A stretch of 61,424 nucleotides of DNA, the filler included, from Coriobacteriales bacterium (GTDB lineage: Bacteria; Actinomycetota; Coriobacteriia; Coriobacteriales; UBA8131), in assembly GCA_031263105.1 (NCBI GenBank). It is 6 parts of 6 records of this genome, joined end to end, with 100 filler letters (N's around TTAATTAATTAA, not from the genome) between each part and the next. Parts side by side here need not be neighbours in the genome. Positions count along the whole stretch, not along the records: positions 8,521 to 34,357 come from JAISGJ010000093.1; 5 more parts are not named here. The stretch is one strand, 5' to 3'. The notes under the pieces were generated by a model, which had not been told where the DNA came from, did not search any database, and worked only from the letters and a program-made list of their open reading frames with translations. Of this stretch, positions 8,618 to 27,060 are shown piece by piece; position 1 is the stretch's first letter; each line of letters begins with the position of its first letter. The translations under genes and the position numbers were made by a program.

Positions 8618-10237
8618 CTAAGCGGCCTTGGCCTTGGTGTCGGTCTTGGTCGTGGACTTGGTCGGGGTCTTGGCTCCGGCATCGGCATCGGCATCGTCTC
8701 CGGTCTTGGTGCCGGTGTCAGTGCCCGTGCCGGTCTTGGTTCCGGTGCCGACATCGTCCCCGGTCTTGGTGCTGGCATCAGTGCCCGTGCCGGTCTTGGT
8801 TCCGGTGTCGGCATCCTCCCCATCCCCGGCATCGACAGGCGGTTTGAGGTTGCCCTTGCTCACGTCGATGACGACGTGGAACTCAAGGGGGATGAAGCGG
8901 CTGTGGTCGTCCATGGCGACCACCGTGCCCTTGGACTCGGAGGAGTCCACGTAGCGCAGCTCGTAGGTGACGTTCGCGCCTTTGGTGGCGAAGTCGTTGA
9001 AGAAGGCCGCAGGCAGGTCGCCCTCACTCGTCCCCCGATAGTCCCTGAGGTAGGGCAGGCCCTCCGAGTAGGTCACGGTGAGCGTGGCCTCGTCGCCGGG
9101 CAGCAGGCGCGTCCCGGCCGCGAGCGATTGGGAGACAAAGCGACCGTAGGCGACGCTGGGGTGGAAGCGCGTCTCGATGACGAGAGGCAGCCCTTCGGCG
9201 GCGGCGGAGGCCGTCTCGGCCGTGTAGGCGGAGAAGTCCGGCACGATAATCGCCTTGCCGAGGGAGACCGTGACCGAGAACGCGTCCTTCTTGGCGAGCT
9301 TCTCGCCCGCCGCCACGCTCTGGCTGACGACGCCGCCTTCCTCGACCGTGTCCGAGTCCGCCTCCTCGACGGTCAGCACGAGGCTGTTCGTCTGCGCCCA
9401 GGTCTCGACCTCGCTGCGCATCTTGCCCGCGAAGTCCGGGACCGTGATGTTCTTCTCGAACACCTCGGCGCCCTGTGAGTAGTACAGCGTCGCGTAGTCG
9501 CGACGGCGGTAGCGTGCGGCATCCACGTCGTTGCCCCGAAACTCGATCCGCAGGAAGTCCCCGTCCGCAACCGTGTCGCTGTACTCCTGCACGAGGCGCA
9601 GGTTGTCCGCCCGCATGTCCTGTATCCAGGCCTCGGCGGCAGCGCGCTTCAGGGTCGCGAAGTCGGGCAGGGCAAGGGCCTCGTCAGGGTCGGGCCCCTT
9701 GCTCACCGCAAGCGCCAGCACCGAGCCCTTGCTGAGCTTCTCGCCAGCGGGGACGCTTTGGGAGAGGACCGTGCCCTCCTCCTCGGCCAGGCGGTACTCC
9801 TCGGCCAGGTCGAGCCCTATCCCCGAGTCGTTGGAGAAGGACTGCGCCTCCGCCACCTGCTTGCCCACCAGCTCCGGCACCTCGACCAGGCGCATGAGGT
9901 ACCAGGCGAGGAAGGCGAGCGCCGCGAACACTACGACGGCGCCCATGACGACGACCGCACGCACCAGCCTCTTGCGTCGGTAGCCCTTGTCGACCTCGAC
10001 GCGATGGTCGAGCGAACGGATGCCGTAGGCGGACGAGGCGGGGGCGACGGGGGTCACGGGGACGAAAAGGCCGTCGTGGCCTGGCTCGACGGTGCCGGTG
10101 GGGGCAGACGCGGGCGCGGCGCCACCAGCGGGCGCGGCGCCGTCGGGTGCGGCCCCGACATCGGAACCAGGGGCTGCCCGCTGCGCGACCACCGGCTTGA
10201 CGCCGTCGCCCTCGAACTGGCTCAAAAAATCGCCCAT
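8618..10237 (-). CDS. Single-TM multi-PASTA domain protein with T/G/K/D-rich repetitive tail
   Basis: TM helix (AVVVMGAVVVFAALAFLAWYL), then repeated VP(E/D)..G / SDTV..G.V.SQS..AG / L.VS.G PASTA units. No kinase or transpeptidase domain. C-terminal TGTKTG repeats. Confidence 0.88.
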   Translation of the reverse strand: MGDFLSQFEGDGVKPVVAQRAAPGSDVGAAPDGAAPAGGAAPASAPTGTVEPGHDGLFVPVTPVAPASSAYGIRSLDHRVEVDKGYRRKRLVRAVVVMGAVVVFAALAFLAWYLMRLVEVPELVGKQVAEAQSFSNDSGIGLDLAEEYRLAEEEGTVLSQSVPAGEKLSKGSVLALAVSKGPDPDEALALPDFATLKRAAAEAWIQDMRADNLRLVQEYSDTVADGDFLRIEFRGNDVDAARYRRRDYATLYYSQGAEVFEKNITVPDFAGKMRSEVETWAQTNSLVLTVEEADSDTVEEGGVVSQSVAAGEKLAKKDAFSVTVSLGKAIIVPDFSAYTAETASAAAEGLPLVIETRFHPSVAYGRFVSQSLAAGTRLLPGDEATLTVTYSEGLPYLRDYRGTSEGDLPAAFFNDFATKGANVTYELRYVDSSESKGTVVAMDDHSRFIPLEFHVVIDVSKGNLKPPVDAGDGEDADTGTKTGTGTDASTKTGDDVGTGTKTGTGTDTGTKTGDDADADAGAKTPTKSTTKTDTKAKAA

Positions 10238-10238
10238 G

Positions 10239-11114
10239 CTACACCAGCGCCTCTCTTTCCGAGTCCGAATCCGACGCGGCAGGAGCGGCAGTCGAGGGGA
10301 CAGCAGGCGCGGCGGACACAGGGCCGCCGGGCGCAGCGACCGCCGGGCCGCTGGGAGCAGCAAACGCAGGGGTGCCAGGCGCAGCCGCAGCAGCGACCAT
10401 CGGATCGCCGGGGGCAACCGCAGCAGCAACCGCCGCCCCGCCCGTCACCTCGCCGAGCACCCCCTTGGACAGGTTCAGCACCTCGTCCGCCTCGTTGGCG
10501 ACCTCGGCGGCGTGGGTGACGACGACGACGCACTTGTCGTGCTCGTGAGCCAATGCCTTGAATATCTGCACAATCTCCTCAGAACTCGTCTCGTCGAGGT
10601 TGCCGGTGGGCTCGTCGGCGAGGATGAGGTCCACGTTGGTGGCAAGCGCCCGCGCGATGGCGACGCGCTGCTGCTCCCCGCCCGAGAGCTGCGGCACGCG
10701 GCGCTCGGCCCTCGTGGCGTCGATGCCGAGGTACGAGAGCAGGTTGGTCGCGACGGCACGCTGGTCTGCCGGCAGCTTGTTGTCGGTGATGTCCATCGCG
10801 ACGAGCACGTTCTCGGTGGCGGTGAGCCACGGGATGAGGTTGTAGCTCTGGAAGACGATGCTCACGTGGTTGCGCCTGAAGCCCTCGTAGCCCAGCTTCT
10901 GGATGTCCGTGCCCTGGTAGAGGACCTCGCCGGAGCGGGGCGCGTCGAGCGCGCTCATCAAGGAGAGCAGGGTGGTCTTCCCCGAGCCGGAGTTGCCGAG
11001 GATGGCATAGAAGCGGCCCGGCTCGAAGTCGTAGGAGATGTCGCTTAGGACATAGCGCTGGGTGGCGCCGTCCTGATAGGCATAGGTGAGGTTGCGCAGA
11101 GACAGTATGGCCAT
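10239..11114 (-). CDS. ABC transporter ATP-binding protein (MacB/LolD-like)
   Basis: [49 protein letters not shown]; Ala/Pro-rich C-terminal tail. Confidence 0.95.
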
Positions 11115-11128
11115 GGGGCGTTCCCTTC

Positions 11129-12703
11129 TCACATCAGTATCTTCTTGGGCTTCAGGCGCAGCACGTAGAGCAGCGGCACGACGCACGAGAGCGCCGTCAC
11201 TCCCACGCCGAGCCCCAGGAAGGTGAGCACGTAGGGCACGCTGAGGCTCACGCGGTAGCCCGCCGCCACGTCCTCGGCCGAGATGGAGTCCATCAAAAGG
11301 CCCGCGTCGCCCCCCAGGTAGCTGCCTGCCGAGATCATCATCCCGTCGCCCGCGCCCTGCGAGGGCATCAGCTGGTTGTCCACCATCTGCTGCGAGAGAC
11401 CGCCCGAGACGAGCGAGCCCGTGAACAGCGCGATGCCCAAGGCCACAATTGCGACCACAAGCACCTCTATCAGCACCTGGCTGACGATCAGCGGCCTGCG
11501 CGCACCGAGCGAGAGGTAGATGCCGAACTCCTTGCGGCGGTCACGCAAAAAGAGCACGACGACGAGGGAGACGACGGCAAGCGCCACGACGACCACGACG
11601 ACGAGCGCCACGGACATGATGTTCTGGATGTCCCTCATCGGCCCTGCGACCTGCTCGTACTGGGAGGTGGCAGAGAGCACCTTGTAGTACTCGGGGAGCC
11701 GTGCGGACGCCGCCTGCTCGAAGCTCTCGAGGTCGTCGATGGAGTTGAGCAGGTAGACCGGCGTGTAATACGGGGTGTAGCTCTCGTTCGACCACAGCTC
11801 GCCCTCGCCTGCGGCCACCGCCAGCTTGCGGTACTCCTCCGTGTTGAACTCGTCCTCCGCCTGCGCCACCTTGATGGGCACGTAGAGGGTGCTGTACAGC
11901 TCGCTCTCAGTGAAGTCGACGACGACGCCCCCGCCGCCGCCGGTGCCGGCCTCGTCCTTGTCGCCCCCTGTCAGGTCGTCGGCACCGCTGTTGCGCGCGA
12001 ATATGCCGATGACCTCGAGCACCACGTCATGCGAGGCCGCCACCTTGGCGCCCGACTCGTCGGAGGCGGCGATGTCCGTCCCGCCCGCCGAATACCAGTC
12101 CTGTATCTCGTTGACAAGGACGACGGTGTCGCCCACATGGAGGTTGTTCGTCTCGGCCACCACGTCGGGGACGATGGCGACCATCCTGCCCTCGCTGATG
12201 TCCGCATCGGTGAACACGCGCCCCTCCACAAGGCTGAGCTTGCCCTCCTCGATGGGCAGGACGGGGGCATAGCGTATGCCACGGAGCGTGAAGTAGGCCG
12301 AATCCGCGTCCGGGCCGACGGCGATGGCACTCGCAACGCCACCCTCGCTTTCAGGCGGCTGGTAGTTCTTCAAGGTTCGGGAGAGGAGATAGGCGCCGAG
12401 CGAGTAGTCGAAGCTCCTGACCTCGGGCCGCTGCCCCAGCTCCTCGATGAGCGCGGCATCAGGATATTCGATCGTGGGCTCCTCGCCCCTGTTGTAGGCC
12501 TCCATGAGCTTCTGGTCGTCCATCCCCAAAGAGACGTTGGCGCCGAGCGCCTGCTTCGCCGCCTCCTCGGACTGCACGATCGCCTGGCGCACCGCCACGG
12601 TGCCCGCTATCAGGTTGCCGATGATGAGCACGACCAGGAACAGGATAAGGCTCTTCCCCGGCCTCCGCACGATACTCAAGGCCGCACGTCTCGCGAAGTC
12701 CAT
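11129..12703 (-). CDS. FtsX/MacB-type ABC permease (paralog 3)
   Basis: MDFARRAALSIVRRPGKSLIL N-terminal TM, large extracellular domain, RDRRKEFGIYLSLG FtsX motif, C-terminal LKPKKILM. Confidence 0.92.
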   Translation of the reverse strand: MDFARRAALSIVRRPGKSLILFLVVLIIGNLIAGTVAVRQAIVQSEEAAKQALGANVSLGMDDQKLMEAYNRGEEPTIEYPDAALIEELGQRPEVRSFDYSLGAYLLSRTLKNYQPPESEGGVASAIAVGPDADSAYFTLRGIRYAPVLPIEEGKLSLVEGRVFTDADISEGRMVAIVPDVVAETNNLHVGDTVVLVNEIQDWYSAGGTDIAASDESGAKVAASHDVVLEVIGIFARNSGADDLTGGDKDEAGTGGGGGVVVDFTESELYSTLYVPIKVAQAEDEFNTEEYRKLAVAAGEGELWSNESYTPYYTPVYLLNSIDDLESFEQAASARLPEYYKVLSATSQYEQVAGPMRDIQNIMSVALVVVVVVALAVVSLVVVLFLRDRRKEFGIYLSLGARRPLIVSQVLIEVLVVAIVALGIALFTGSLVSGGLSQQMVDNQLMPSQGAGDGMMISAGSYLGGDAGLLMDSISAEDVAAGYRVSLSVPYVLTFLGLGVGVTALSCVVPLLYVLRLKPKKILM

Positions 12704-12826
12704 GCGACGCCTCCTTCCTTCGCTGACATCAAGACACGGGCACCCTCGAACGGCTGTGCCTGTCGAGACACCACTATACTGCTTGCCGGAAGCGAAAGCC
12801 AGCGACCGTGCGGGCATGACCTCCTC

Positions 12827-12876
12827 TTCCCTTCTCACATCAGTATCCTCTTGGGCTTCAGGCGCAGCACGTAGAG
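12827..12876 (-). pseudogene. Remnant of an FtsX permease 3' end
   Basis: 49/50 nt identical to 11121-11170; encodes LYVLRLKPKRILM-stop. Confidence 0.8.
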
Positions 12877-12890
12877 ATGCTGAGCCTGCC

Positions 12891-13976: not shown

Positions 13977-13991
13977 AACCGATCCTTCTTT

Positions 13992-14102
13992 CTTTGTTCG
14001 AGCAGCGCTTGCCACCAAGGACGTTTCCCGCACACAGGCACCCACCCTTCTGAAGCCTTCACTTAGTAATAGTTGCGAGTTGGGGAACGGTTCACATTTT
14101 TC
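13992..14102 (-). promoter_or_regulatory. Duplicate of the ECF sigma gene promoter and first codons; putative ECF promoter TGAACC at 14094-14089
   Basis: Aligns with 26838-26949; TGAACCG and CTCGCRACTATTACTA are conserved while the spacer differs. Confidence 0.65.
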
Positions 14103-14171
14103 TTGGAATCGGCAGGGTGCCTCAAACCCTCGGGCCTGCCGCCCCTGTCCTCGTCAAGCTGATCCCTCCCC

Positions 14172-15698
14172 TTATAGCAGTATCCTCCGAGGCTTCAGGC
14201 GCAGCACGTAGAGCAGGGGCACGACGCAGGAAAGGGCCACCACGCCTACGCTGACCCCGAAGAACGTGAACACGTAGGGCAGGTCGACACTCACCTGATA
14301 GCTCGCCATGGCGTCCTCTACGGACAATGTGCCCATCAGAAGACCCATGGTGCTCGTCAGTGAGTTGCCCGAGATAGAGTGCATCGAGGAGATGTCCTGT
14401 TGACCCGCCATCTGGCCCTCCACCATGTGCTGAGAGAGCGCCCCAGAAGCAAGGGAGCCCACGAACAGCGCGAGGACGAGGGCGACGAGGGCGACCGCGA
14501 GCACCTCCGCGAGCACCTGGGCCACGACGACAGGACGATGCACGCCGAGCGAAAGATAGATGCCGAACTCGCGGCGGCGGTCGCGCAGGGAGAGCGCGAC
14601 AACGAGCGAGACGACGGTGAGCGCCGCAGCTGCCACTACGACGAGCGCCGTGCCCATGGCCCGCTGGATGCCCTTCATCGGGCCTGCCACTTCCTCGAAC
14701 TGGGTCGTGGCGGAGAGCACCTGGTAGAACTCGGGGAGCGCCGCCTGCGCCGCCTGCTCGAAGCTGTCGAGGTCGTCTGGGGAGTGAAGCAGGTAGAGAA
14801 CGCTGTAGCGCGGCCCCCTGCCTTCCGACTCCTCCCTCGTGAGCTTGCGCTCCGCCTCCAGAGCAAACTCCTGTTCCTCGCGTGCGAGACCGACGGGCAC
14901 GTAGAAGACCTCGTAGTACTCGTTCGCAGCCTCCGTGACGCGCTCTTGAAGCTCCTGTCTGCCTTGGCTGCCTGCAGCCGCCGCGCCCGCGCCGCCGCCG
15001 AGGGAGAACACGCCGATGACCTCGAGCGTGAGGTCGTGCGAGGCGACCACCTCACCGTCCTCCCGACTGGAGAACTTCCCCGCCTGATCCGCTGACGAGT
15101 AGTCCCGCACCTCGTTGAGGAGGGCGACGCGGTCGCCCACGTGAAGGCCGTTCTCCGCAGCCACCATGTCGGGTATGAGGGCGACCGGCCTGCCCTCGGC
15201 GACCTCCTCCTCCGTGAACGTGCGCCCTTCCACGAGGGCAAGTGCACCCTCCTCGATGGGCATGACGGGAGCGTAGCGCGTGCCCCGAAGCGTGAAATGG
15301 GCCATGTCGTCAACCGGGCCGAAATCCAAAGCCCCGGGTACCCGATAGTTCTTCAACTCCGGGGCAATGATTAGCATGGCGTCGATCGAGTAGTCGAAAG
15401 CCCTGACCTCGGGGCGCCGCCCCAGCTCCTCGAAGAGTTCAATGCTGAGGTTCTTGACGACGAAGTCATCGAAGTCCACCCCCCGCTCTTGGGCCTCCGT
15501 CAACGCCTGGGAGTCCCCTCCCAAGGAAACGCTGGCGCCCAGCGCCTGTTTTGCTGCCTCCTCGGAACCGGCCACCGCCTGGCGCACCGCCACCGCGCCC
15601 GCCATCAGGCTGCCGAGTGCGAGCACGACCAAGAACAGGATGAGGCTCTTGCCAGGCCGCCGCACGATGCTCAGAAACGCACGCCTCACGAAGCCCAT
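14172..15698 (-). CDS. FtsX/MacB-type ABC permease (paralog 2)
   Basis: Same architecture as 11129-12703; RDRRREFGIYLSLG motif. Confidence 0.92.
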   Translation of the reverse strand: MGFVRRAFLSIVRRPGKSLILFLVVLALGSLMAGAVAVRQAVAGSEEAAKQALGASVSLGGDSQALTEAQERGVDFDDFVVKNLSIELFEELGRRPEVRAFDYSIDAMLIIAPELKNYRVPGALDFGPVDDMAHFTLRGTRYAPVMPIEEGALALVEGRTFTEEEVAEGRPVALIPDMVAAENGLHVGDRVALLNEVRDYSSADQAGKFSSREDGEVVASHDLTLEVIGVFSLGGGAGAAAAGSQGRQELQERVTEAANEYYEVFYVPVGLAREEQEFALEAERKLTREESEGRGPRYSVLYLLHSPDDLDSFEQAAQAALPEFYQVLSATTQFEEVAGPMKGIQRAMGTALVVVAAAALTVVSLVVALSLRDRRREFGIYLSLGVHRPVVVAQVLAEVLAVALVALVLALFVGSLASGALSQHMVEGQMAGQQDISSMHSISGNSLTSTMGLLMGTLSVEDAMASYQVSVDLPYVFTFFGVSVGVVALSCVVPLLYVLRLKPRRILL

Positions 15699-16363: not shown

Positions 16364-16367
16364 GCTC

Positions 16368-17222
16368 CTAAAGGGGCTTCGACACGTCGATTTTCAACGA
16401 CCGCGCTTTGAACAGGGACGCAGCCGCCAACACCAGGCAAGCGCCAATCAACACTGCAAGGGCGTAAGACACCGTGGGATAGGGCGAAAAGCCCGTGGTA
16501 TCCAGGATAGAGAGGTCCGACCAGGCCGTGGGAGCGAAGTGGTACATCCAGTAGCCGCTCCCCGAGAACTGGAACAACTGGGGCGCGAGGGAGGCCACGA
16601 GTCCCATCGCGATGCCGGCGGCACGCCCCGAGTAGAGGTTCACGGCGAACATGGCAAGGCCTATCAGGGCGACCTCCAAGGCAAACAGCCCGGAACTGAG
16701 CGCCATGGCACAGGCCGGCGTATAACTCGCCTGTACGACATAGGGGACAGGGACGTCGATGTAGTTGTAGCCTGCCGTCGTCAGGGCGGCTGTCGAGAGG
16801 ATCCTCCCCCACTCAAAGGTGAAGCCCAGATGGGGGACGAGCGTAAGGACGCTGACCGCCGTCACGAACAGCACATAGACGAGCGTCGCCAAAAGGACGT
16901 AGAGCAGCTGGCCGCAGAGCCATCGCACCTTGCCCGCACGGATGCTCTCGTAGGGCGTCAAGTCGTGTATGAACGGCGCGTCGCAGAAGAGGAGAACCAC
17001 CGCAAAGAAGAGCGGCATGCAGACCCGCAGGTCGCCCAAGAGGAAAGGGAGGGTCCACGGCGCGACAGGGACGTCGACCACCTGCGAGAAGGCCACAAAG
17101 CCCTGGCTGAAGCCGTGGACGACGAAGGCCGCCAAGAGGAAGGACACCCAGTAGCGCGGCTCGATGAGCCAGCGCCTGAAATTGTTCGTGGCGAGGCGGA
17201 CAACCACCCGCATACTACCCAT
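16368..17222 (-). CDS. ABC-2-like membrane permease
   Basis: About 6 TM segments, LFCDAPF and IRAGK..W motifs; directly upstream of the ABC ATPase. Confidence 0.8.
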   Translation of the reverse strand: MGSMRVVVRLATNNFRRWLIEPRYWVSFLLAAFVVHGFSQGFVAFSQVVDVPVAPWTLPFLLGDLRVCMPLFFAVVLLFCDAPFIHDLTPYESIRAGKVRWLCGQLLYVLLATLVYVLFVTAVSVLTLVPHLGFTFEWGRILSTAALTTAGYNYIDVPVPYVVQASYTPACAMALSSGLFALEVALIGLAMFAVNLYSGRAAGIAMGLVASLAPQLFQFSGSGYWMYHFAPTAWSDLSILDTTGFSPYPTVSYALAVLIGACLVLAAASLFKARSLKIDVSKPL

Positions 17223-18012: not shown

Positions 18013-18036
18013 ACAGGCGCCCCCTGGAGGCCTGCC

Positions 18037-19122
18037 TCACAGTATCTCCTCCCCCGTGACCGCATCGAAGTGGCAGCGATAGGGCATCCCGTCGGCCTCC
18101 ACCGGGCCGTCCTGCGCCCCGTCCGCTATCCGGTAGCTCCACACGGGCACCAGCTCGACCGCAGAGCGCGAGGGGTCGGTGTAGCGGACGCAGTACTCCA
18201 GTCGGACGTCGGCGACCTCGTAGGGACGAGCCGCGATGAGGGCACCGTACTTCTCCTCCAAAAGCCTGTCGGCGGCCTCCTGGGACAGGAGTTCGACCGT
18301 CCTTGAGGCAGCGGGATCCACCGTGTAGAGCGCCGAGAACGTGAGCGACACGAGGCCCTCGGCGGTGACGAGGGCCTCGGCGGGGATGCCGGCTCTGTAG
18401 TCTGGGCTCTGGAGGGCACGGGTGGGGTCGTCGGCGTACAGGGGGATGCCGTCGACTTCTGGTTCGAGGATTATGCGGTAGCAGTCATCGGCCTCCGTCC
18501 AGGACTCCTTGGGGACGATCTTCCCATACGCGATCATGTCCTCGTTTGTCGGATCCCCCAAGACGTCCTCCTCGGCCGCAGCCATCGCCTCGTGGCCGAG
18601 GGCATAGACCGTCACCTCGCCGGACGAAGTGAGGCCCAAGGCACCCAGGGCTGCCCTCGCCTCGTCGACGGCCTCCTCGGGGCTGCAGAACCAAAGTGCC
18701 TCGTCTGTCGCCGTCCCCGCCGCTTCTAAAAGAGCGTAGCGGGATGCACCAAGACTGAGAACATCTCCGATGGCTTGAGAGAATGGGCTGGACATGCTGA
18801 GATATCCGACACTGTGATCTATGTATACGGAAAAGCCGTCGGTCGTCGTAATGCTGTAACCTGGCCCGCCCTGGCTTTCGTCGTGGTAGGTGACGTCGGA
18901 GACGGTCTTGCCCTCCAAGAGGCAGGCCTCGGCCTCCTCCGGCGTAAGGAGACGGATGCCAAGGGCTGGGATGTCCAGCGTCGCAGAGGCATCCACCGAC
19001 TGCCCCAAGGGGTTGCTGAGGGAGCTTGCTGCGCCCTCGCCGGAGGCACGGCCGGCGCCCTGGCAGGCGGCGAGCGTAAGCATGAGCAGGCACGAGACGG
19101 CACAGAGCACGAACCTTGGCAT
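18037..19122 (-). CDS. Uncharacterised lipoprotein (paralog L2)
   Basis: MPRFVLCAVSCLLMLTLAAC lipobox; paralog of 12891-13976. Confidence 0.87.
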   Translation of the reverse strand: MPRFVLCAVSCLLMLTLAACQGAGRASGEGAASSLSNPLGQSVDASATLDIPALGIRLLTPEEAEACLLEGKTVSDVTYHDESQGGPGYSITTTDGFSVYIDHSVGYLSMSSPFSQAIGDVLSLGASRYALLEAAGTATDEALWFCSPEEAVDEARAALGALGLTSSGEVTVYALGHEAMAAAEEDVLGDPTNEDMIAYGKIVPKESWTEADDCYRIILEPEVDGIPLYADDPTRALQSPDYRAGIPAEALVTAEGLVSLTFSALYTVDPAASRTVELLSQEAADRLLEEKYGALIAARPYEVADVRLEYCVRYTDPSRSAVELVPVWSYRIADGAQDGPVEADGMPYRCHFDAVTGEEIL

Positions 19123-19229
19123 AGCAAGCCCTTCTTTCCTTGAAGCGGGGCGGGAGGCGGGGAGGCGTGCCTCCATCCTCCGGAGTCGCAGGAGCAGCAC
19201 GTAGAGCAGACTCTTCGCTCTCTCAGCCT

Positions 19230-19679
19230 CTAGGAGCACCACTTGACAGCGAGACGCAGCCAGCCAAACTCATCGTTGGTTGTATGGCCAAGCATTCTAA
19301 TCCATGTGTTTGCACCTACAGTAGTGCTGCTCCAGTACCATTGGTATGACGTTTGGCCGTATGCTCCCGGAAAGCCGTTATACCCATACGAGCCCCTGAT
19401 CAGCTCTATGGTGTCTGAGACTACCGCCCCGCCAGAGAGCTTGGCACGAAAGTACACCTTTTCTCCTACATGCCAGTCGCTGGCAACACCGTCAAAACTG
19501 GTTCGCGGCGTAACAAACCAGCGTCCCTCGTTATCTACCTTTTGATTCGGTGGAGTTTCTTCATTGGTGCCATTTGGATTCATAAGCAGCATAAGATCCA
19601 CGTTGCCTGCGAACGCAGGGGAGATGCCCCCGAACAACAGGACACCGACAATCGCAAAGACCGCTATTTTCTTTTTCAT
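19230..19679 (-). CDS. Secreted 149-aa protein (paralog A2)
   Basis: Sec signal MKKKIAVFAIVGVLLFGGISPAFA, RBS AAGGAGGA, visibly lower GC than flanking genes; mature part about 49% identical to 22819-23268 (manual ungapped count, 61/125). Confidence 0.88.
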   Translation of the reverse strand: MKKKIAVFAIVGVLLFGGISPAFAGNVDLMLLMNPNGTNEETPPNQKVDNEGRWFVTPRTSFDGVASDWHVGEKVYFRAKLSGGAVVSDTIELIRGSYGYNGFPGAYGQTSYQWYWSSTTVGANTWIRMLGHTTNDEFGWLRLAVKWCS

Positions 19680-19849
19680 GAAATCCTCCTTCTTCTTGAA
19701 ACGGGACAGCCCAAATCCTCGATGGTGGTCAGAGCACTAGCGTCCGTACCTATCCGCTCGCATGGCATCCCCTCCTTTCAACCCCTCGAATCCCTCAAAA
19801 ACCGGCGGGAAGCGGCACGTTCCGCCGTTCCCCGCCAAGGTGAAGCCTT

Positions 19850-19963
19850 CTACTTGTCCAGCGTAAGCGGAATTTCCACAGACGTGCTATCGACCGCAAA
19901 GGAGAGCGTGAGCGTCTCGGGGGCGTCGAAGTACATGCTGTCGAGCTCGATACGGCTAGCCAC
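19850..19963 (-). pseudogene. Chimeric deletion scar: first codons of the ABC-2 permease fused in frame to the anti-sigma C-terminus
   Basis: GTG-ASR (compare MASR at 18012) joined to IELDSMYFDAPETLTLSFAVDSTSVEIPLTLDK-stop (compare the end of 25058-26311). Confidence 0.8.
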
Positions 19964-19987
19964 ACAGGCGCCTCCGGGAGACGTGCC

Positions 19988-21081
19988 TCACAGTATCTCC
20001 TCTCCCGTGACCGCGTTGAAATAGCATTGGGAGGGCATCCCATCGGCATCCACCGGGCCGTTCTGTGCCCTATCCGCTATCGAGTAGCTCCATGCAGGCA
20101 CCAACTCGACCGCAGCATGCAAGGAGTCGGTGTATTGGACAAAATACTCCAGCCGAACGTCGGTGACCTCGTAGGGGCGATTCGTGATGAGGAGACCGTA
20201 CTTCTCATCCAAGCACCTGTCCGCAGCCTCTTGGGGCAGGAGCTCAACCGTCCTTACAGTCGAGTGATCCGTCGTGTAGAACGCCTTGACCCAAAGCGAG
20301 ACGATGCCGTCAGCGGTAACGAGGGCCTCGATGGCACCACCCGGACTGGAGTTGTAAGTCTGAACGCTGGTAAAGTCGTCAGAGTGCAGAGGGATGCCGC
20401 CGATTTCCGTCTCAAGGACTATGTAGTAGCAGTCGTCGGCCTCCGTCCAAGAGTCTTTGGAGGCAAGCTTGCCCAAGGCGAGCATGTCATCATTGTTCGG
20501 ATCCCCCAAAATAGCCTCCTCAGCCGCTGCCATCGCCTCGTGGCCGAGGGCATAGATCGCCACCTCGCCGGTCTGGGTGAAGCCCAGACCGGTCAGAGCA
20601 GCCTTCAGCGTGTCGACGGCCCCTCAGGACTACAGAACCAAAGGCTCTCGGCTGTAGACGAGCTCTTCGCCCCTAAAAAAGCATCCCTGTCCACAGCGAG
20701 GCCCAAGATCTGATCGACGGATCTCGCAAGCGGGCCACGGAACACAAGCGAACTGTGGTTCGCAAACGAACTGCTGGTCGCTACGGATGCGACAAAACCC
20801 TCGGTCGTCGTAATGGTACAGACTGAGTCATCCACAACTTCATAGTATTCGGTATCAGAGACAGTCCTGCCTTCGAGGAGGCAGGACATAACCTCTTCCG
20901 GCGTAACCGCGCAAAAGGCAAGCGCCGGGACATCAAGCGTCACAGGAGTATCCACTGATTGCGCAAGGGGGTTGCTGATGGGGTTGCCGGCGTCCTCTCC
21001 AGAGGCACGACCGGCACCCTGACAGGAACTGAGCGCGAGCGCGAGCAGGAACGAAGCAACAAGCAACACGAATCTGGGCAT
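19988..21081 (-). pseudogene. Lipoprotein paralog L1, frameshifted
   Basis: Two ORFs (20605-21081 and 19988-20563) align to consecutive halves of L2/L3. A 1-nt deletion at about 20621 turns CSPEEAVD into CSPEGPSTR-stop. Confidence 0.82.
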
Positions 21082-21123
21082 AGTCGCTCCCTTCCTTGAA
21101 ACGAGGCATGACATGGCATTCCC

Positions 21124-22662
21124 TCACATCAGTATTCGTCTAGGCTTCAAACGCAGCACGTAGAGCAGGGGCACAGCGCACGAGAGGGCCGCCACGCCCA
21201 TGCCAAGGCCAAGGAACGTGAGCACATAGGGCGCGTCGATGCCCACCCGATAGCCCGCCACGGCATCCTCTGCGGAGAGCGTGCCTATCAGGAGGCCCAC
21301 GTCGTCGCCGAGGTGGTTGCCCGAGATTTCCACTCCGTAGCCCGAGTAAGCGATGCCCTGCCGAGCCGCCATCCGGCCCTCCACCACCTGCTGGGAGAGC
21401 GCATCGGAAGCGAGCGAGCCCACGAGCAACGCAAGAGCAAGGGCGACGAGGGCGACCACGAGCACCTCCACGAGCACCTGAGCGACGACAGCAGGGCGGT
21501 GCGCGCCGAGCGAGAGGTAGACGCCGAACTCACGTCGGCGGTCACGCAAGGAGAGCACGACGACGAGCGAGACGACGGCCAACGCCGCCGCCGCCGTGGC
21601 GAGGACGGTCGTGTCCATAGCCCGTTGGATGCTCTTCATCGGGGCGGCCACCTCCTCAAACTGGGTCGTGGCGGAGAGCACCTTATAGAACTCGGGGAGC
21701 GCCGCCTGCGCCGCCTGCTCGAAGCTGTCGAGGTCGTCGGCGGAATGGAGCAGATAGAGGAGAGTATAGGACGGCCCTCTGTCGTCCGGTGCCTGCCCCG
21801 CAAACTTACGCTCCGCCTCCAGAGCGAACTCCTGCTCCTCCCGCGCGAGGCTTACGGGCACATAGAAGGTTCGGTAGTACTCGTTCGCAGCCTGGGCGAC
21901 ACGTTCCTTGAGCGCATCCCTGCCCAGCCCGTCTGCGACGGCAGCGCCCGCGCCACCGTCGAGGGAGAACACACCGATGACCTCGAGCACGACATCGCGC
22001 GAGGCGAGCACCTCACCGTCCTCCCGACCGTAACCTTTCACCGAACTCACTTCCGAGTAGTCCCGCACCTCGTTGAGGAGGGTCACAGCATCCCCTGCGT
22101 GGAGGCCGTTCTCTGCGGCCACCACGTCGGGGATGAGGGCGACCGGCCTGCCCTCGGCGACCTCCTCCTCGGTGAACGTGCGCCCCTCCACGAGAGCGAG
22201 GGCACCCTCCTCGATGGGCATGACAGGGGCATAGCGCGTGCCCCGGAGCACGAAGTAGGCCATATCCGCTACCGGGCCATAACTCAGGGCCTCCGTATCC
22301 CAAGCCGGGTACCAGTTCCTCAGTTCCGGGGCCGCAAGGAATGCATTGGTCGAATAGTCGAAGCTCCTGACCTCGGGGCGCCGCCCCAGCTCCTCAACGA
22401 GCTCCGCGCTGAGGTTCTTGACAATGAACTCGTCGAAGTCAATTCCCCTCTTCCAAGCCCCTGTCAGCGCTTGGGTATCACGCCCCAAGGATACGCTTGC
22501 CCCCAGCGCCTGCTTCGCCGCCTCCTCGGATTCCGCCACCGCCTGGCGTACCGCCACCGCACCCGCCGCCAAGCTTCCGAGGGCGAACACGACGAGGAGC
22601 AGGATGAGGTTCTTGCCGGGCCGCCGCACGATGCTCAGGAACGCGCGTTTCGTGAAATGCAT
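21124..22662 (-). CDS. FtsX/MacB-type ABC permease (paralog 1)
   Basis: Highly similar to 14172-15698; RDRRREFGVYLSLG motif. Confidence 0.92.
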   Translation of the reverse strand: MHFTKRAFLSIVRRPGKNLILLLVVFALGSLAAGAVAVRQAVAESEEAAKQALGASVSLGRDTQALTGAWKRGIDFDEFIVKNLSAELVEELGRRPEVRSFDYSTNAFLAAPELRNWYPAWDTEALSYGPVADMAYFVLRGTRYAPVMPIEEGALALVEGRTFTEEEVAEGRPVALIPDVVAAENGLHAGDAVTLLNEVRDYSEVSSVKGYGREDGEVLASRDVVLEVIGVFSLDGGAGAAVADGLGRDALKERVAQAANEYYRTFYVPVSLAREEQEFALEAERKFAGQAPDDRGPSYTLLYLLHSADDLDSFEQAAQAALPEFYKVLSATTQFEEVAAPMKSIQRAMDTTVLATAAAALAVVSLVVVLSLRDRRREFGVYLSLGAHRPAVVAQVLVEVLVVALVALALALLVGSLASDALSQQVVEGRMAARQGIAYSGYGVEISGNHLGDDVGLLIGTLSAEDAVAGYRVGIDAPYVLTFLGLGMGVAALSCAVPLLYVLRLKPRRILM

Positions 22663-22818
22663 GCGCTGCCCCTTCCCTGCCCGCTGCCGTAAGGTTCCTC
22701 CGACGCAACGATATGAAGACCAAACGCCGGAATATACCTACTCATAGACGCTGCCATTTTGGAAAGAGGGTGCAGGCAAGCGAGAAGCCTACAGCCACCA
22801 GATTCCCACAATCGACCT

Positions 22819-23268
22819 CTAGGGACACCACCTGCCGACCATACGCAAAGCGCCGAAGCTGTCGCTGTTTTTATAGCCAGCCATTTTGACAACATAGTTC
22901 GCACCCACAGAGAGAGAACTCCAATACCACTGGTATGCATGGACGTTATAGGTTCCGAAAAAGCCGTTAGGCCCATTCCCATTCTTGATCAGCCCTACCG
23001 TATCCGAGAGCGCCGCTCCAGCGAAATTCTGTGCACGAAAGTATACCGCTTCACCCGTGTTCCAGTCGCTGGAAGCACTCCCTAGGCTGGACAGCGGCGT
23101 AACGTACCAGCGCCCCTCGCTGTCATCTTTCGCGTTCGTCGCAGTATGTGACTCGATACCGCCTTGCTGGATGAGAAGATTAAAATCCGCGTTGCCAGCA
23201 AATGCAGGAATAGCGCCCCCAAACAACAGGATGCCAACAATCGCAAAAATCGCTATCTTCTTCTTCAT
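22819..23268 (-). CDS. Secreted 149-aa protein (paralog A1)
   Basis: Signal peptide MKKKIAIFAIVGILLFGGAIPAFA, RBS AAGGAGGA; ends in GRWCP. Confidence 0.88.
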   Translation of the reverse strand: MKKKIAIFAIVGILLFGGAIPAFAGNADFNLLIQQGGIESHTATNAKDDSEGRWYVTPLSSLGSASSDWNTGEAVYFRAQNFAGAALSDTVGLIKNGNGPNGFFGTYNVHAYQWYWSSLSVGANYVVKMAGYKNSDSFGALRMVGRWCP

Positions 23269-23380
23269 GAAATCCTCCTTCTTCTTGAAACGGGACAACT
23301 CGAATCCTCGATGGCAGTCAGCGCACTAGCGTCCGTACCGATCCGCTCGCATGGCATCCCCTCCTCGTATCATAATCATC

Positions 23381-23585
23381 GTCTCCTCCCGGAGACTTTC
23401 AGTCCTGTACTTACGTCTTTGTGAATATGGGGCAATCCATGACGGCAGGGGTCGCATTTCATCTCCTGAAGCTCAGTCTTCTTCTGAAAGGCTTGCGCCC
23501 CTGCCTGGCGGAGTAACACCGATCAGCTGGATAGCGCTCAGTCGCTTCATGTCTAACGAGGATGTGTGCCGTCAGGCTCCGGGGA
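23381..23585 (+). ncRNA. Putative IS110 bridge RNA (left-end non-coding RNA)
   Basis: 5' hairpin GTCTCC/GGAGAC. A stem-enclosed loop carries TCATCTCCT and TGAAAGG, matching the target. A second loop carries AGCTGG and ACGAGG, matching the donor junction. Both inner hairpins share GCTCAGTC. Boundaries are approximate. Confidence 0.72.
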
Positions 23586-23629
23586 AGAACCTGCCACCCT
23601 TTATCCGTTTGATTGATTGGAGGTAGAAG

Positions 23630-24814
23630 GTGTACTACGTAGGCATCGATGTCGCCAAGCGAAAGCACAGCATGGCGGTAATCACAGGCGAGGGCGAAAA
23701 AGTCATAGAGGGCTTTGAGCTCGCCAACACGACCGAGGGGTTCAAGGTGATGTTAGAGATGCTTGCTGCGTCAGGCGTCACGCACGAAAACTCAAAGGTC
23801 GCCTTAGAGTCCACCGGCCACTGCAGCAACGCCATATCGGCGCATCTGGTGGTCCACGGCTTTCAGATTGCCCTGGGCAATCCGCTTCAGACCCACAACT
23901 TCGCCAAGGCCCAAAGCATAAGAAAGGTGAAAAACGATGCTGTCGACGCATTGGCGCTGGCGCAGTGGCTGCTGCTTCAACGCCCAGGCTGCTTTAAGAT
24001 GTCATCGTCTGAAGCCGCAGAGCTGAAGTCGATCGCAAGGTTTCGCACCTTTCAAATGCAGATTATAGGCGATTGCAAAAGAAAGGTCATCGCGATTTTA
24101 GACCAGCTCTTCCCGGAGTACGAGCGCTTCTTCTCCGACATCTTCGGCACAGCCTCTACAGCAGCGCTTTTGCGCTACCCGTCGGCCAGAGCGCTGTCCC
24201 GCGCCCATATCGACTCCCTCGCGAACCTGCTGAAAAGCTCCAGCAGGGGCAAGTTGGGTTCCGAGTTGGCGATAAGGCTGCGGGATGCGGCCAAAGACTC
24301 GTTTGCCACCAATGCCGCCGTCGAATCCCAGTCTATGGCGCTGGTGCAACTACTGACCCAAATCGAGTTCAGCAAAAAGCAGCTCAGGGCCATTGACAAG
24401 GAGATGAAGTCGCTGCTGGACGTCGCCGCGACACCCATCGCCACTATCCCTGGGATCGGCATCGTCTGCGCAGCCACCATCCTCGGCGAGATTGGCGACA
24501 TAACGCGGTTCAAGAAGCCATCAAGCCTGGTGGCCTATGCCGGGCTTGACCCGTCGGTCTTTCAGTCCGGTGAGTTCACCGGCACGAAGAACCACCTGTC
24601 CAAGCGCGGCTCGACGTTCCTGCGCTGGGCGCTTTGGATAGCTGCTGACCGGGCTAGGATGTTTGACCCGGCGTTTAAAGCCTACTATGCCAAGAAGCGC
24701 TCGGAGGGCAAGTGCCACAAGGTGGCGATGACCGCCGTGGCTCGAAAGCTCTGCAACACCATCTTTGCCGTTTTGACCAGGAACACCGAATACGTCTGCC
24801 CGGTCGCCGGGTAG
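23630..24814 (+). CDS. IS110 family DEDD transposase/recombinase
   Basis: YVGIDVAK, ALESTGH and KNDAVDA (DEDD), IPGIG, EIGDITRF, AYAGLDP.VFQSG (catalytic Ser region), SKRGS, AVARKL. GTG start after GGAGG. Confidence 0.97.
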   Translation: MYYVGIDVAKRKHSMAVITGEGEKVIEGFELANTTEGFKVMLEMLAASGVTHENSKVALESTGHCSNAISAHLVVHGFQIALGNPLQTHNFAKAQSIRKVKNDAVDALALAQWLLLQRPGCFKMSSSEAAELKSIARFRTFQMQIIGDCKRKVIAILDQLFPEYERFFSDIFGTASTAALLRYPSARALSRAHIDSLANLLKSSSRGKLGSELAIRLRDAAKDSFATNAAVESQSMALVQLLTQIEFSKKQLRAIDKEMKSLLDVAATPIATIPGIGIVCAATILGEIGDITRFKKPSSLVAYAGLDPSVFQSGEFTGTKNHLSKRGSTFLRWALWIAADRARMFDPAFKAYYAKKRSEGKCHKVAMTAVARKLCNTIFAVLTRNTEYVCPVAG

Positions 24815-25004
24815 CCTGAAGACCTCAATCCGCAATCATAGCGAGCGGTTCTGCCGCCCGCCACCTTATGCTGCCCAAAAATGCCTAAAGTCTTCGTATG
24901 CGACCCGGGTTTGTCCCATATTCAACTTTCAAAGATCACTTTCAAAAACTTCTCAAGACTCTATTGACTTTTCATAGCTGGCCTTTCAATCCCTCGAATC
25001 CCTC

Positions 25005-25045
25005 AAAAACCGGCGGGGAGCGGCACGTTCCGGCGTTCCCCGCCA
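25005..25045 (-). terminator. Possible intrinsic terminator after the anti-sigma gene (paralog at about 19797-19836)
   Basis: GGCGGGGA...TCCCCGCC stem followed by GGTTTTT on the minus strand. Confidence 0.45.
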
Positions 25046-25057
25046 GGGTGAAACCTC

Positions 25058-26311
25058 CTACTTGTCCAGCGTAAGCGGAAGCTCTACGACCGTGCGACCA
25101 GATGCAAAAGAGAGCGTAAGGGTCTCGGGGGCATCGAAGTACATGCTGTCGAGCTCGAACCAACACTTCGCGACGCCGTCCGTCACGCCGTTTTGACTCC
25201 AAGACCCGGCATCGTAACGTTTGCCGCCCGCTTCCGCACAGGCGTCTACGTGCATCAGGTCGTACTTGGCCTGCGGGTAGCCCGTCTCAGCCGAGAGCGT
25301 CGCGCTGTCAGGGTGGCCCAAGCCGTTCTTCGAGAAGTCAAGATCAGCCTCGAGCCTGCACACGGAGGGCAGGACCGTCACACTCGTGACCTCGATGCCG
25401 GCAGTTGCGAAACCTGGCGCGACACTGTAGGAGAGGGCTTCGATGCGCAGGAACTTGCTATCGACGTCTATGTCGTATGTCCAGTCGCCCCCAAGGACCA
25501 CGGTCTCCAGCGCACCGTCTGCACCAGCGTAGTAACTGAAGCTCAGGTCACTGATGCTCACACGCACCTTTTTCTCGACAGAAACCACCGGTTCGTCGAA
25601 TTTGACAATAACGGGAACCTGGTACCTGCCATCCTCGGTCTTCGCGACATCGGCCATGGCGATAAAATCTTGGTTGCTCCGCACGCTTTCGTGGGTGTTG
25701 TTTTTCATGTCGAAGAAGTAATGGCCTCCGGGAAACGTCTTGTTCTCGATGCCAGTCTCGAAGTCAAAGCTCTCCTTCCACGCGGCGGTCTTGCCGTTCT
25801 CATCGGTCATCTCCAACGAGAACTCCCGCATGAACACGGAAGTGGGGTCATCCGGGATGTCCACGCCGGACAGGATGAAGTCGAGGCCGATCTCGTTGCT
25901 GTCCGCATAGTAGGCCTGGAGCTCCAGCGTGGCACCGAAGGTGAAGACAGGCGACCCGTCCTGCGCCTCGGCCACGAAGCCGGCATCGACGATGGCGCGG
26001 CGCGAATCGTTGGCGAGCATCCCGTCCCCGGTAATCGTCGCGAACAGGGTGCCGAGCGCCCCCGTTGCCGCAAGCGCGGTCGTGCCCAGCGCCAGCACAA
26101 GGATGGTTGCAACGGCGACCGTGGCAAACACGCGGCGACGCGGAGCCCCCGCATACGCTCTCTCCCAACGCGAATGCCCCTGCGAGCCTTTCTGGGAGGC
26201 ATGGCCCTTCACCCTGTCCACGAGGTCGCGACTCGGCGTCTCCGAGATGGAGAGCGCCCGACGGAGCAGGGCGTCGACATCGACTCCGTCAACTCGATTG
26301 TCAGAAGCCAT
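25058..26311 (-). CDS. Putative anti-sigma factor (DUF4179-like, single TM)
   Basis: Short cytoplasmic N-terminus (DALLRRAL), one TM helix (VAVATILVLALGTTALAA), large beta-rich extracellular domain; overlaps the ECF sigma stop codon. Confidence 0.78.
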   Translation of the reverse strand: MASDNRVDGVDVDALLRRALSISETPSRDLVDRVKGHASQKGSQGHSRWERAYAGAPRRRVFATVAVATILVLALGTTALAATGALGTLFATITGDGMLANDSRRAIVDAGFVAEAQDGSPVFTFGATLELQAYYADSNEIGLDFILSGVDIPDDPTSVFMREFSLEMTDENGKTAAWKESFDFETGIENKTFPGGHYFFDMKNNTHESVRSNQDFIAMADVAKTEDGRYQVPVIVKFDEPVVSVEKKVRVSISDLSFSYYAGADGALETVVLGGDWTYDIDVDSKFLRIEALSYSVAPGFATAGIEVTSVTVLPSVCRLEADLDFSKNGLGHPDSATLSAETGYPQAKYDLMHVDACAEAGGKRYDAGSWSQNGVTDGVAKCWFELDSMYFDAPETLTLSFASGRTVVELPLTLDK

Positions 26312-26879
26312 GGTCTGCCACCAATCCTTTCTCAATAAGCTTCCGAGCCTTGTGCAGGCGGCTCTTCACGGTGCCCTCGGGCAGGCCGAGGACGGACGCG
26401 ATGTCCGCGACGCTCATCTCGTTGGCGTAGTACAGGACGACGGGGGCCTTCAGCTTGTCCGGGAGCGCCTCCACGAGCCGCCGCACGGCTCGCTGCTCCT
26501 CCCGCGCCATGAAGTCGTCTTCCGTGCTCGCCGTGCTCGCCGCAGCGCTGCCGCTGTCTGTGGCCTCGTCGAGTGCGACCTCCGGCGCGAGCCGCCTCCT
26601 GCGGGCGTACTTTCTGCGCCTGCTCTTCCACAGAAAGGCCGCCACAGACAAAAGGAAGCTCTGGGGGTCGTCCGCATCCTCCACGTTCGCCATCTGGGAG
26701 AATGCCTTGAGGAAGGTGTCCTGGAACAGGTCGTCCGCATCCTCCCTCGCATAGGTGATGCTCCGACAGAAGCGGTAGACCGCCCCGCCGTACCCGTCGA
26801 CAAGCCCCGCCGCAGACAGCCTGGAGCCTGCCTTTGCCTTTGTTCGAACAGCGCCTACCACCAAGGACGTTTCCTGCAC
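26301..26879 (-). CDS. ECF RNA polymerase sigma factor
   Basis: Region 2 (DADDLFQDTFLKAF) and region 4 (LPDKLK..VVLYY....SVADIASVLGLPEGTVKSRLHKAR). Start uncertain (GTG 26879 or 26891). Confidence 0.93.
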   Translation of the reverse strand: MQETSLVVGAVRTKAKAGSRLSAAGLVDGYGGAVYRFCRSITYAREDADDLFQDTFLKAFSQMANVEDADDPQSFLLSVAAFLWKSRRRKYARRRRLAPEVALDEATDSGSAAASTASTEDDFMAREEQRAVRRLVEALPDKLKAPVVLYYANEMSVADIASVLGLPEGTVKSRLHKARKLIEKGLVADHGF

Positions 26880-26909
26880 ACGCGCACTCACCCTTCTGAA
26901 GCCTTCACC

Positions 26910-26940
26910 TAGTAATAGTCGCGAGATCGAAAGCGGTTCA
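26910..26940 (-). promoter_or_regulatory. Putative autoregulatory ECF promoter (TGAACC -35-like element)
   Basis: TGAACCG...CTCGCGACTATTACTA lies upstream of the sigma gene and is conserved in the copy near 14070-14094. Confidence 0.55.
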
Positions 26941-27060
26941 TTGTTTTTTCGGAATTCCGTGCGCAATGCAAAGGATGCCCTGAGCCAAATTGCCTTGGCG
27001 GGCGTAGCGGGAGCCTCAGTACGTCTTGCCGTCAGATGTAGGCTGTCGTTACTATTCACA

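Follow-up and report, generated by a model that had tools for sequence, protein, structure and literature searches.

We analysed a 61,424-nucleotide (nt) window of DNA from a gut bacterium of the Coriobacteriales (assembly GCA_031263105.1), made up of six parts of the genome joined end to end, and in particular a cassette of genes at positions 8618 to 26940. Judged from gene order and homology, this locus is a composite of three units: a pair of putative regulators headed by an extracytoplasmic function (ECF) sigma factor; a module encoding a small secreted protein (A), a lipoprotein (L) and an ATP-binding cassette (ABC) pump of two permeases (P2a, P2b) and one ATPase (ATP2); and a resident operon for an FtsX-type permease, a MacB-type ATPase and a PASTA protein. 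The order L2-P2a-P2b-ATP2 is repeated at seven other loci. We tentatively favor, with rather less than even confidence, the view that the module encodes a Sec-secreted protein bacteriocin with immunity of the NisI/NisFEG kind, and that the locus holds an additional orphan immunity copy.

The source is a metagenome-assembled genome of 2.9 Mb in 250 contigs (86% complete, 6.5% contamination), labeled G000 here; labels such as G010, G087, and G599 denote other genomes compared. Open reading frame (ORF) listing, translation, and scans against Pfam and NCBIfam confirmed the gene order that an earlier sequence-only reading had proposed, which on the minus strand runs ECF sigma factor, a protein with one transmembrane (TM) segment, A1, X1, L1, A2, L2, P2a, P2b, ATP2, X2, L3, X3, the MacB-type ATPase, and the PASTA protein. 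That reading took all genes to be co-oriented, which fails at one place, as an IS110 transposase lies on the plus strand between the putative anti-sigma gene and A1. Its ECF, FtsX, PASTA, and MacB-type labels were borne out by family matches; "anti-sigma" and "ABC-2 permease" were not, and reflect position and topology only. Nor does the cassette hold together as the single system it was taken for: its FtsX permeases, MacB-type ATPase, and PASTA protein belong to the separate resident operon. The genes of the A-L-pump module are as follows (aa, amino acids).

22819..23268, minus strand: A1, 149 aa, Sec signal, mature part of ~125 aa (sequence and profile comparison)
19988..21081, minus strand: L1, lipoprotein paralogue with a 1-nt deletion near 20620 (comparison with L2 and L3)
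19230..19679, minus strand: A2, 149-aa Sec-signal protein, predicted jelly roll (AlphaFold2 [AF2] predicted local distance difference test [pLDDT] 64, all-beta)
18037..19122, minus strand: L2, 361-aa lipoprotein, lipobox LAAC, distant relative of DUF6034 and PDB entry 5COZ
17215..18012, minus strand: P2a, multi-TM permease of no named family (27-29% identity to plasmid homologues)
16368..17222, minus strand: P2b, multi-TM permease of no named family (32-34% identity to plasmid homologues)
15686..16363, minus strand: ATP2, ABC ATPase (best NCBIfam model TIGR03740, below cut-off; 56-59% identity to plasmid homologues)
12891..13976, minus strand: L3, orphan lipoprotein without an A partner (translation, paralogue identity)

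A tblastn search of plasmids identified full-length L homologues (23% identity) on plasmids of Clostridium tagluense and Clostridium estertheticum, where they stand in the order L-P2a-P2b-ATPase with identities of 27-28% for P2a, 32-34% for P2b, and 58-59% for the ATPase. The C. tagluense unit adjoins an annotated MutFEG lantibiotic-immunity transporter. The module is also present on a Niallia taxi megaplasmid; with P2b of the window as the query it was detected in G087, 1 of 400 other genomes of the class, and with the G087 P2b as the query in G599, G731, and G777, 3 of 250 other genomes of family f2. L and the pump are intact at all eight loci, and the module loci of the other genomes and plasmids contain no FtsX gene. 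The conserved partner of L is the two-permease ABC transporter. Separately, the C. estertheticum plasmid has, 4 kb from the L module, another and smaller unit (locus L027, 6286-8172), which encodes a 172-aa lipoprotein together with a membrane protein and an ABC ATPase that shares 44.5% identity with ATP2.

An A-like gene lies 53-107 nt upstream of L at five of the eight loci (G000, G087, G731, Niallia, and G777). The A-like proteins of the last four have 134-148 aa and a signal peptide, are encoded 53-84 nt 5′ of L, align over the full length of A, and share a C-terminal G-x-W-x-P/S ending. An A-family profile detected those of G731 (E = 6e-9) and G777 (E = 4.5e-8), neither of which was used to build it. 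The G777 gene carries an in-frame TAG, G599 has only a C-terminal A remnant of ~60 codons directly after a two-component system, and on the two Clostridium plasmids, which lack A, all frames upstream of L are closed. The sequence-only reading had paired each secreted protein with its own lipoprotein and had set the co-occurrence of A and L elsewhere beforehand as a test; the pair was indeed found again in G087, G731, G777, and the Niallia megaplasmid.

The patchy distribution, the plasmid carriage, the G+C content of the cassette (0.58-0.62 versus 0.64-0.70 in its flanks), and an insertion sequence (IS) element described below point to a mobile accessory trait. That trait might be purely defensive. 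In such an envelope module, L with its pump, and the X permeases with the MacB-type ATPase, would remove or sequester foreign cell-wall-active peptides, A would be an accessory such as a binding protein, decoy, or co-sensor, and the ECF pair would sense damage. This alternative is favored by the two Clostridium plasmids, which have L-ABC units but no A (MutFEG adjoins one of these units), by the decay of A in G599 and G777 while the pump is intact, by the variation of envelope-type regulators from locus to locus (an ECF sigma factor in G000 and near G087; in G599, an adjacent two-component system), and by the copy of the ECF leader that precedes L3 and not A. It leaves unexplained, however, why in two phyla the module begins with a gene for a Sec-secreted protein and why mature A and the N-terminal half of L diverge most between the duplicated units of the cassette, and we consider it unlikely, though to be taken seriously. 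Loci with only L and the pump or with a decayed A, together with plasmid carriage, patchy distribution, and divergent A/L pairs, also fit a bacteriocin with cognate immunity.

The L proteins carry a lipobox with Cys after L-A-A. In homologue searches the close relatives of L2 were L2 itself, L3, and one JGI fragment only, and no homologue of L2 was found in the 33 other genomes of the family. An L-family profile was colinear with 5COZ_A, a PDB entry described as an "uncharacterized protein" (E = 8.6e-5). Against DUF6034 (PF19499, cut-off 27 bits), the G087 homologue scored 30.7 bits, that of Niallia 23.0, that of G599 16.0, and L2 13.2, with no match for L3 or the G731 protein; a feature search of the Atlas was consistent with the links of L to DUF6034 and 5COZ. 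L resembles 5COZ/DUF6034 by its colinear profile and through the G087 protein, which exceeds the cut-off, and departs from it in the score of L2 itself. The literature searched yielded no paper that deals with DUF6034, with 5COZ in this context, or with the A-L-pump module.

For P2a and P2b, no Pfam family scored above its cut-off and no NCBIfam model matched; one of the permeases has an MIP match of 19.4 bits versus a cut-off of 25. The best NCBIfam model for ATP2 was the lantibiotic-protection model TIGR03740 (166.9 bits versus a cut-off of 309.75), and P2b aligned with a MutG gene over 42 aa only (tblastn, E = 0.005). In the NisI and NisFEG system, as described in PMC8538875, the antimicrobial is bound by the lipoprotein and expelled by a pump that has two unlike permeases and a single ATPase. 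The module resembles such LanI-LanFEG systems in that L lies beside an ABC transporter of two unlike permeases and one ATPase, that the best model of ATP2 is one for lantibiotic protection, and that the C. tagluense unit lies beside MutFEG. It differs in that ATP2 falls below the cut-off and P2a and P2b match no MutE or MutG model; that L has 361 aa and is related to DUF6034 and 5COZ rather than to NisI or SpaI; that no lantibiotic precursor or modification genes occur among the 17 scanned proteins; and that, in place of a peptide, the candidate ligand is a folded ~125-aa protein.

The N terminus of A, read from the sequence, consists of MKKK, a hydrophobic stretch, and AFA, which constitutes a Sec signal. 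A search of 1.84 billion representative proteins with the A profile gave 10 matches at E ≤ 0.001, one of which was A1 itself. Five were unnamed metagenomic signal-peptide proteins of 135-158 aa ending in GTWCP; four of these align with A along almost their whole length, the fifth in its first part. The metagenomic A homologues P0006 and P0009 match no Pfam or NCBIfam family either. The remaining four matches were set aside as repetitive or partial. AF2 modeling of mature A with 10 sequences gave an all-beta fold at pLDDT 64 (33.7 with just 2 sequences), and the ESM Atlas model had a predicted TM-score of 0.70; Foldseek found no match in the PDB at E ≤ 0.001.

Other searches added little to the A family. 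A sequence homologue search with A2 returned just A2 itself, and tblastn of P0009 against plasmids returned no match. A degenerate DNA pattern for A recovered both A genes in the window and found nothing in viral contigs, and a pattern search of genome contigs gave five pattern matches, none of which was confirmed. Over the 400 other class genomes, an A query gave a signal-peptide match in G124 only, in a search insensitive enough to miss the G087 A-like gene in that sample. A lead to DUF2712, carried by 21% of one Atlas cluster, was dropped, as PF10916 finds nothing in the genome at E ≤ 10. When L2 (residues 21-361) and A2 (25-149) were co-folded, the score was 0.02 against a mark of 0.32, in a run made without controls.

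The folds nearest to A include the carbohydrate-binding modules (CBMs) CBM6, CBM4, and CBM36, and the cassette is fused to a PASTA-linked FtsX system. Both would suit a role in envelope biogenesis or surface display, in which the pump would export a glycopolymer or lipid-linked compound, A would be a CBM-like wall binder, and L would be its membrane-tethered partner. The fold matches are generic, however (Z ≤ 7.2), and a sparse, plasmid-borne, patchy distribution with decay of A is ill-suited to a core wall function; this account strikes us as quite improbable. Under the bacteriocin reading, A would instead be exported by Sec and act outside the cell on the envelope of competitors, L, tethered to the external face of the membrane, would bind its cognate A as NisI binds nisin, and a P2a/P2b heterodimer with ATP2 would clear A from the producer membrane as NisFEG does.

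In the cassette, the module has been duplicated and rearranged. A1 and A2 are 54.7% identical (81/148), L2 and L3 77%, X1 and X2 74%, and X1 or X2 and X3 55-56%; L1 and L2 share 49% in the N-terminal half and 66% in the C-terminal half. The insertion and the scars of these events are the following.

24990..25057, minus strand: terminator-like hairpin and U-tract 3′ of the putative anti-sigma gene (second copy at 19782-19852)
23361..24981, plus strand: IS110-family element, 1621 nt (transposase 23630..24814; NF033542, 225 bits)
19853..19963, minus strand: duplication scar joining the first 4 codons of the permease gene P2a to the last 35 codons of the putative anti-sigma gene (88% DNA repeat; 77% aa identity to residues 383-417)
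19175..19209, minus strand: FtsX 3′-end remnant of a deleted X gene between A2 and L2 (83% identical to the X2 3′ end)
12827..12876, minus strand: scar upstream of X3, duplicating the sequence in which the X3 3′ end meets the ATPase ribosome-binding site (98% identical to 11121-11170)

Downstream of L1, the fusion of the P2a start to the anti-sigma end precedes a second terminator-like hairpin and a second 96-nt A leader (92.7-92.9% identity between copies). The fusion is the junction of a tandem duplication that spanned the anti-sigma 3′ end, A, X, L, and the P2a 5′ end. The second unit has lost its X gene, since a 35-nt FtsX 3′-end remnant is left between A2 and L2; the scar upstream of X3 is 50 nt long. 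The IS110 element is flanked exactly by the hairpin on one side and the A1 leader on the other, and an uninterrupted copy of the target site, from which we inferred the element boundaries, survives upstream of A2. Elsewhere in the assembly the element has left one trace only, a 72-nt end fragment on contig C175. The L1 frameshift reads GAGG-GGCC versus GAGGAGGCC in L2 and L3, and the 1-nt deletion is reproduced in a Logan contig from the probable source sample.

Divergence between the duplicated units is mosaic. The 270 nt 5′ of the A start codon are 71-93% identical per 45-nt window (91-93% in five of six windows); this stretch includes the dead anti-sigma fragment, yet it is well conserved between the copies. 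Within mature A, identity drops to 51-67%. The number of synonymous substitutions per site (dS) is ~1.1 for A1 versus A2, with a ratio of nonsynonymous to synonymous change (dN/dS) of 0.32, and 0.28 for L2 versus L3. Simple positive selection was rejected as the cause, as it does not explain the pattern. The simplest reading of these comparisons is either an exchange of divergent A and L specificity regions between flanks that stayed conserved or a homogenization of the flanks. An ancestral unit (anti-sigma 3′ end, A, X, L, and P2a 5′ end) was duplicated in tandem, and divergence or exchange would then have produced two A/L specificities and the orphan L3.

Two side observations concern the same region. 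The 96-nt leaders of A1 and A2 contain an identical mini-ORF of eight codons, MRADRYGR, with GGAGG upstream (23333-23359 and 19745-19771, minus strand), which might be a control element acting through a leader peptide, or a coincidence. Another sample from the same study yielded contig pieces ~88-97% identical to L3, X2, ATP2, P2a/P2b, the IS element, and the anti-sigma gene (12233-26102) and, in contigs only, no cover over L1 (19735-20980) at 85% likeness, which weakly hints at a strain variant in the variable part of the locus.

The IS110 element, the L1 frameshift, the X remnants, and the fusion scars raise the question of whether the array is largely decaying and non-functional, its paralogues having no current role. 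Yet the ORFs of A1, A2, L2, L3, X1, X2, X3, the two ATPases, and the two permeases are all intact, dN/dS being 0.27-0.57, and we give this explanation little credence. In the bacteriocin reading, L3 would be an orphan immunity copy.

The X permeases belong with the resident operon, whose genes and duplicates are listed here.

21124..22662, minus strand: X1, FtsX/MacB-type 4-TM permease, diverged duplicate of X3 (PF02687, 41 bits; topology; tree)
14172..15698, minus strand: X2, FtsX/MacB-type permease, duplicate (Pfam, paralogue identity, tree)
11129..12703, minus strand: X3, resident FtsX/MacB-type permease (orthologues 43-64% identical in G010, G013, and G016)
10239..11114, minus strand: MacB/LolD/FtsE-like ABC ATPase, the sole one of its type in the cassette (65-79% identity to orthologues)
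8618..10237, minus strand: kinase-less membrane protein with three PASTA domains and a low-complexity tail (PF03793 three times; 49-60% identity to orthologues)

The trio of X3, ATPase, and PASTA genes occurs in the same order among unrelated neighbors in G010, G013, and G016, 3 of the 33 other genomes of the family, and in none of ~367 sampled genomes from other families of the order; its named database relatives are proteins of Coriobacteriales metagenome-assembled genomes. The X proteins score 41.0 (X1), 36.5 (X2), and 40.7 bits (X3) against the FtsX C-terminal domain (PF02687, cut-off 25.5) and 20.1-24.5 bits against the MacB periplasmic core (PF12704, cut-off 27). The hydropathy of X1 and X3 is consistent with TM1, a following ~300 aa that are extracytoplasmic, and three hydrophobic segments toward the C terminus; X1 shows an additional short hydrophobic stretch at 224-242. 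In a maximum-likelihood tree, X1 and X2 group together (100/100) on a long stem (0.91) and fall inside a 99/99 clade that also includes X3 and a single metagenomic protein. Because of this placement, X1 and X2 can be regarded as fast-diverging duplicates of the resident permease; their differences are clustered in patches of the extracytoplasmic domain. Insertion of X1 and X2 into the A-L module is seen in this genome only and, on the tree and gene order, is a probable recent local recruitment. The recruited permeases presumably share the single MacB-type ATPase and, by conjecture, could give self-protection or release a second ABC layer in the style of lactococcin 972.

With TIGR03608 (cut-off 254.85), the MacB-type ATPase reaches 181.9 bits. 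The PASTA protein matches the PASTA kinase model NF033483 only over model positions 362-545 (109.8 bits versus a cut-off of 450); no kinase domain was found in it, Pfam finding PASTA only. The trio resembles FtsEX/MacB type VII systems in the 4-TM topology of X with its large extracytoplasmic domain and FtsX C-terminal domain, in its LolD/FtsE-like ATPase, and in the ECF sigma factor encoded in the same cassette; YknYZ of Bacillus subtilis is a type VII system controlled by sigma-W. It differs in that the partner is a kinase-less membrane protein with three PASTA domains, not a hydrolase or membrane-fusion protein, and in having three permease paralogues for one ATPase gene. As an observation in its own right, the trio (8618-12703; loci L022, L023, and L024) is a conserved three-gene operon in four genomes of an uncultured Coriobacteriales family, possibly a cell-wall-sensing ABC machine, for which we know of no described counterpart. 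The 3′ end of the PASTA gene (8677-8808) encodes a repetitive, low-complexity sequence in which Thr, Gly, Lys, and Asp abound; the DNA repeats with a 30-nt period.

The remaining features concern regulation.

26838..26955, minus strand: leader/promoter-like region of the ECF gene, the first of two genomic copies (TGAACC-N17-TATTAC; 84% identical to 13992-14109)
26301..26861, minus strand: ECF sigma factor, start codon uncertain (Sigma70_r2 and r4_2; TIGR02937, 86 bits versus a cut-off of 42.9)
25058..26311, minus strand: putative anti-sigma factor (one TM segment at about residues 59-90 by hydropathy; ~320-aa extracytoplasmic domain; overlaps the ECF stop codon)
13992..14109, minus strand: copy 2 of the ECF leader/promoter-like region, upstream of L3 (repeat comparison)

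The sigma factor, a protein of ~190 aa, has regions 2 (PF04542) and 4 (PF08281) only. Its partner is called anti-sigma from its position, its overlap with the ECF stop codon, and its one TM segment; it matched no Pfam family at E ≤ 10, no NCBIfam model, and no PDB sequence. By phmmer its ectodomain has no similarity to A, L, or X. It was found in none of the 33 other family genomes; the search also matched its 35-codon remnant within the cassette. The 118-nt stretch that precedes the ECF gene returns upstream of L3 at 84% identity; TGAACC and TATTAC are kept and the 17-nt spacer has diverged, and these are the only two TGAACC-N17-TATTAC sites in the assembly. A scan for sigma-70 and terminator consensus sequences gave nothing relevant. 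ECF sigma factors usually autoregulate, and if this one does, the leader copy would place L3 and the genes after it in its regulon, so that the pair probably drives at least L3-X3-ATPase-PASTA through the duplicated promoter. Support for ECF control comes only from this promoter-like leader, shared by the ECF gene and L3; the regulator pair is separated from A1 by the terminator-like hairpin.

An ECF sigma factor and a partner with a large ectodomain at the head of the locus, and divergent A/L pairs that could be private signal and receptor alleles, would also suit protein-signal sensing, in which secreted A would be perceived by L or by the anti-sigma ectodomain and release the sigma factor. 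Against this, we noticed no adjacent regulator in the ORF lists of G731 and Niallia, read by eye without a family scan, and record annotation shows none immediately adjacent to the two Clostridium units. The ECF partner is unique to G000, the hairpin stands between regulators and A1, and such a system would not need an ATP-driven two-permease pump; we regard this model as very unlikely. Near the G087 module, upstream (locus L030, 12177-12800 and 15179-16586), lie a 207-aa protein with an internal GFVWRP motif, a transposase-like ORF, and a divergent ECF sigma factor with a one-TM partner that is unrelated in sequence to that of the window.

For the bacteriocin reading, the other point of comparison is lactococcin 972. 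PMC4055356 and PMC11796350 describe loci whose first gene encodes a Sec-secreted beta-sandwich protein, and the latter describes pneumococcal lactococcin-972-like loci that lost the secreted gene and retained the rest. A resembles these in its Sec signal, its small all-beta form, its place as the first gene, and the FtsX-related permease and MacB-type ATPase nearby, and both sources report that some such loci lose the bacteriocin and keep the immunity genes. Here the likeness ends, and the sequence-only comparison of A with lactococcin 972 did not survive at the level of protein families. A matched no family model, including those for lactococcin 972 (TIGR01653 and PF09683), and its mature length is 125 aa; mature Lcn972 has 66. 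The X proteins are of the 4-TM MacB type, unlike the 7-TM TIGR01654, and no bacteriocin-immunity membrane-protein model matched; the MacB-type ATPase falls under the TIGR03608 cut-off, and X genes are absent from the module elsewhere.

Several observations weigh against a bacteriocin with NisI/NisFEG-like immunity. A1 and A2 match no Pfam family at E ≤ 10 and no NCBIfam model at E ≤ 0.01. A wide structure search with A returned generic jelly rolls (carbohydrate-binding modules, PNGase F, GOLD, and PirA) at Z ≤ 7.2, rated as the common range. The isoelectric points of A1 and A2 (5.6-6.1) are near neutral, unlike those of many cationic bacteriocins. ATP2 and the permeases lie below the LanFEG family cut-offs, dN/dS is below 1 for every pair compared, L1, the presumed cognate of A1, is frameshifted, and the IS element parts A1 from its upstream region. 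A is decayed in two of four relatives, which fits a dispensable accessory protein equally well.

A bolder form of the reading would make A-L-P2a-P2b-ATPase a hitherto undescribed cross-phylum family (Coriobacteriia and Bacillota) of Sec-secreted jelly-roll bacteriocins, in which a cognate lipoprotein of the DUF6034 type and a pump like LanFEG would neutralize each bacteriocin. The present locus would then be a polymorphic toxin/immunity array with two specificities and an orphan immunity copy, in which fast-evolving duplicates of a housekeeping FtsX-PASTA permease were co-opted as additional, paralogue-specific protection under ECF control. We hold this to be possible, though on balance doubtful.

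As for the surroundings, the genes divergent from the ECF gene on its upstream side are annotated as an ABC ATPase and two BPD_transp_2 permeases, ordinary ABC-importer genes. PADLOC gave only generic ATPase and PASTA matches on the locus, and Rfam gave no matches at E ≤ 0.1. The cassette contig covers positions 8521-34357 and the PASTA gene ends 97 nt from its edge; because the contig starts at 8521, after an N spacer, the cassette may extend beyond the PASTA gene. The spacer (8421-8520) is an N run around the all-frame stop sequence TTAATTAATTAA, and ORFs or repeats across it are artifacts.

A secreted antimicrobial with a lipoprotein and ABC immunity is a known kind of system; in the literature searched, we found no description of these protein families, of a five-gene module spanning two phyla, or of recruited FtsX duplicates. 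Sec-exported protein bacteriocins and their immunity are poorly charted outside lactic acid bacteria. If the bacteriocin reading is true, it would give a role to DUF6034-type lipoproteins, whose structure 5COZ is solved and unexplained, and to an unannotated secreted family. It would also define a portable five-gene module that could be searched for in gut metagenomes, and the locus would be a clear case in which duplication gave a housekeeping MacB/FtsX permease a new task within an accessory antagonism locus.

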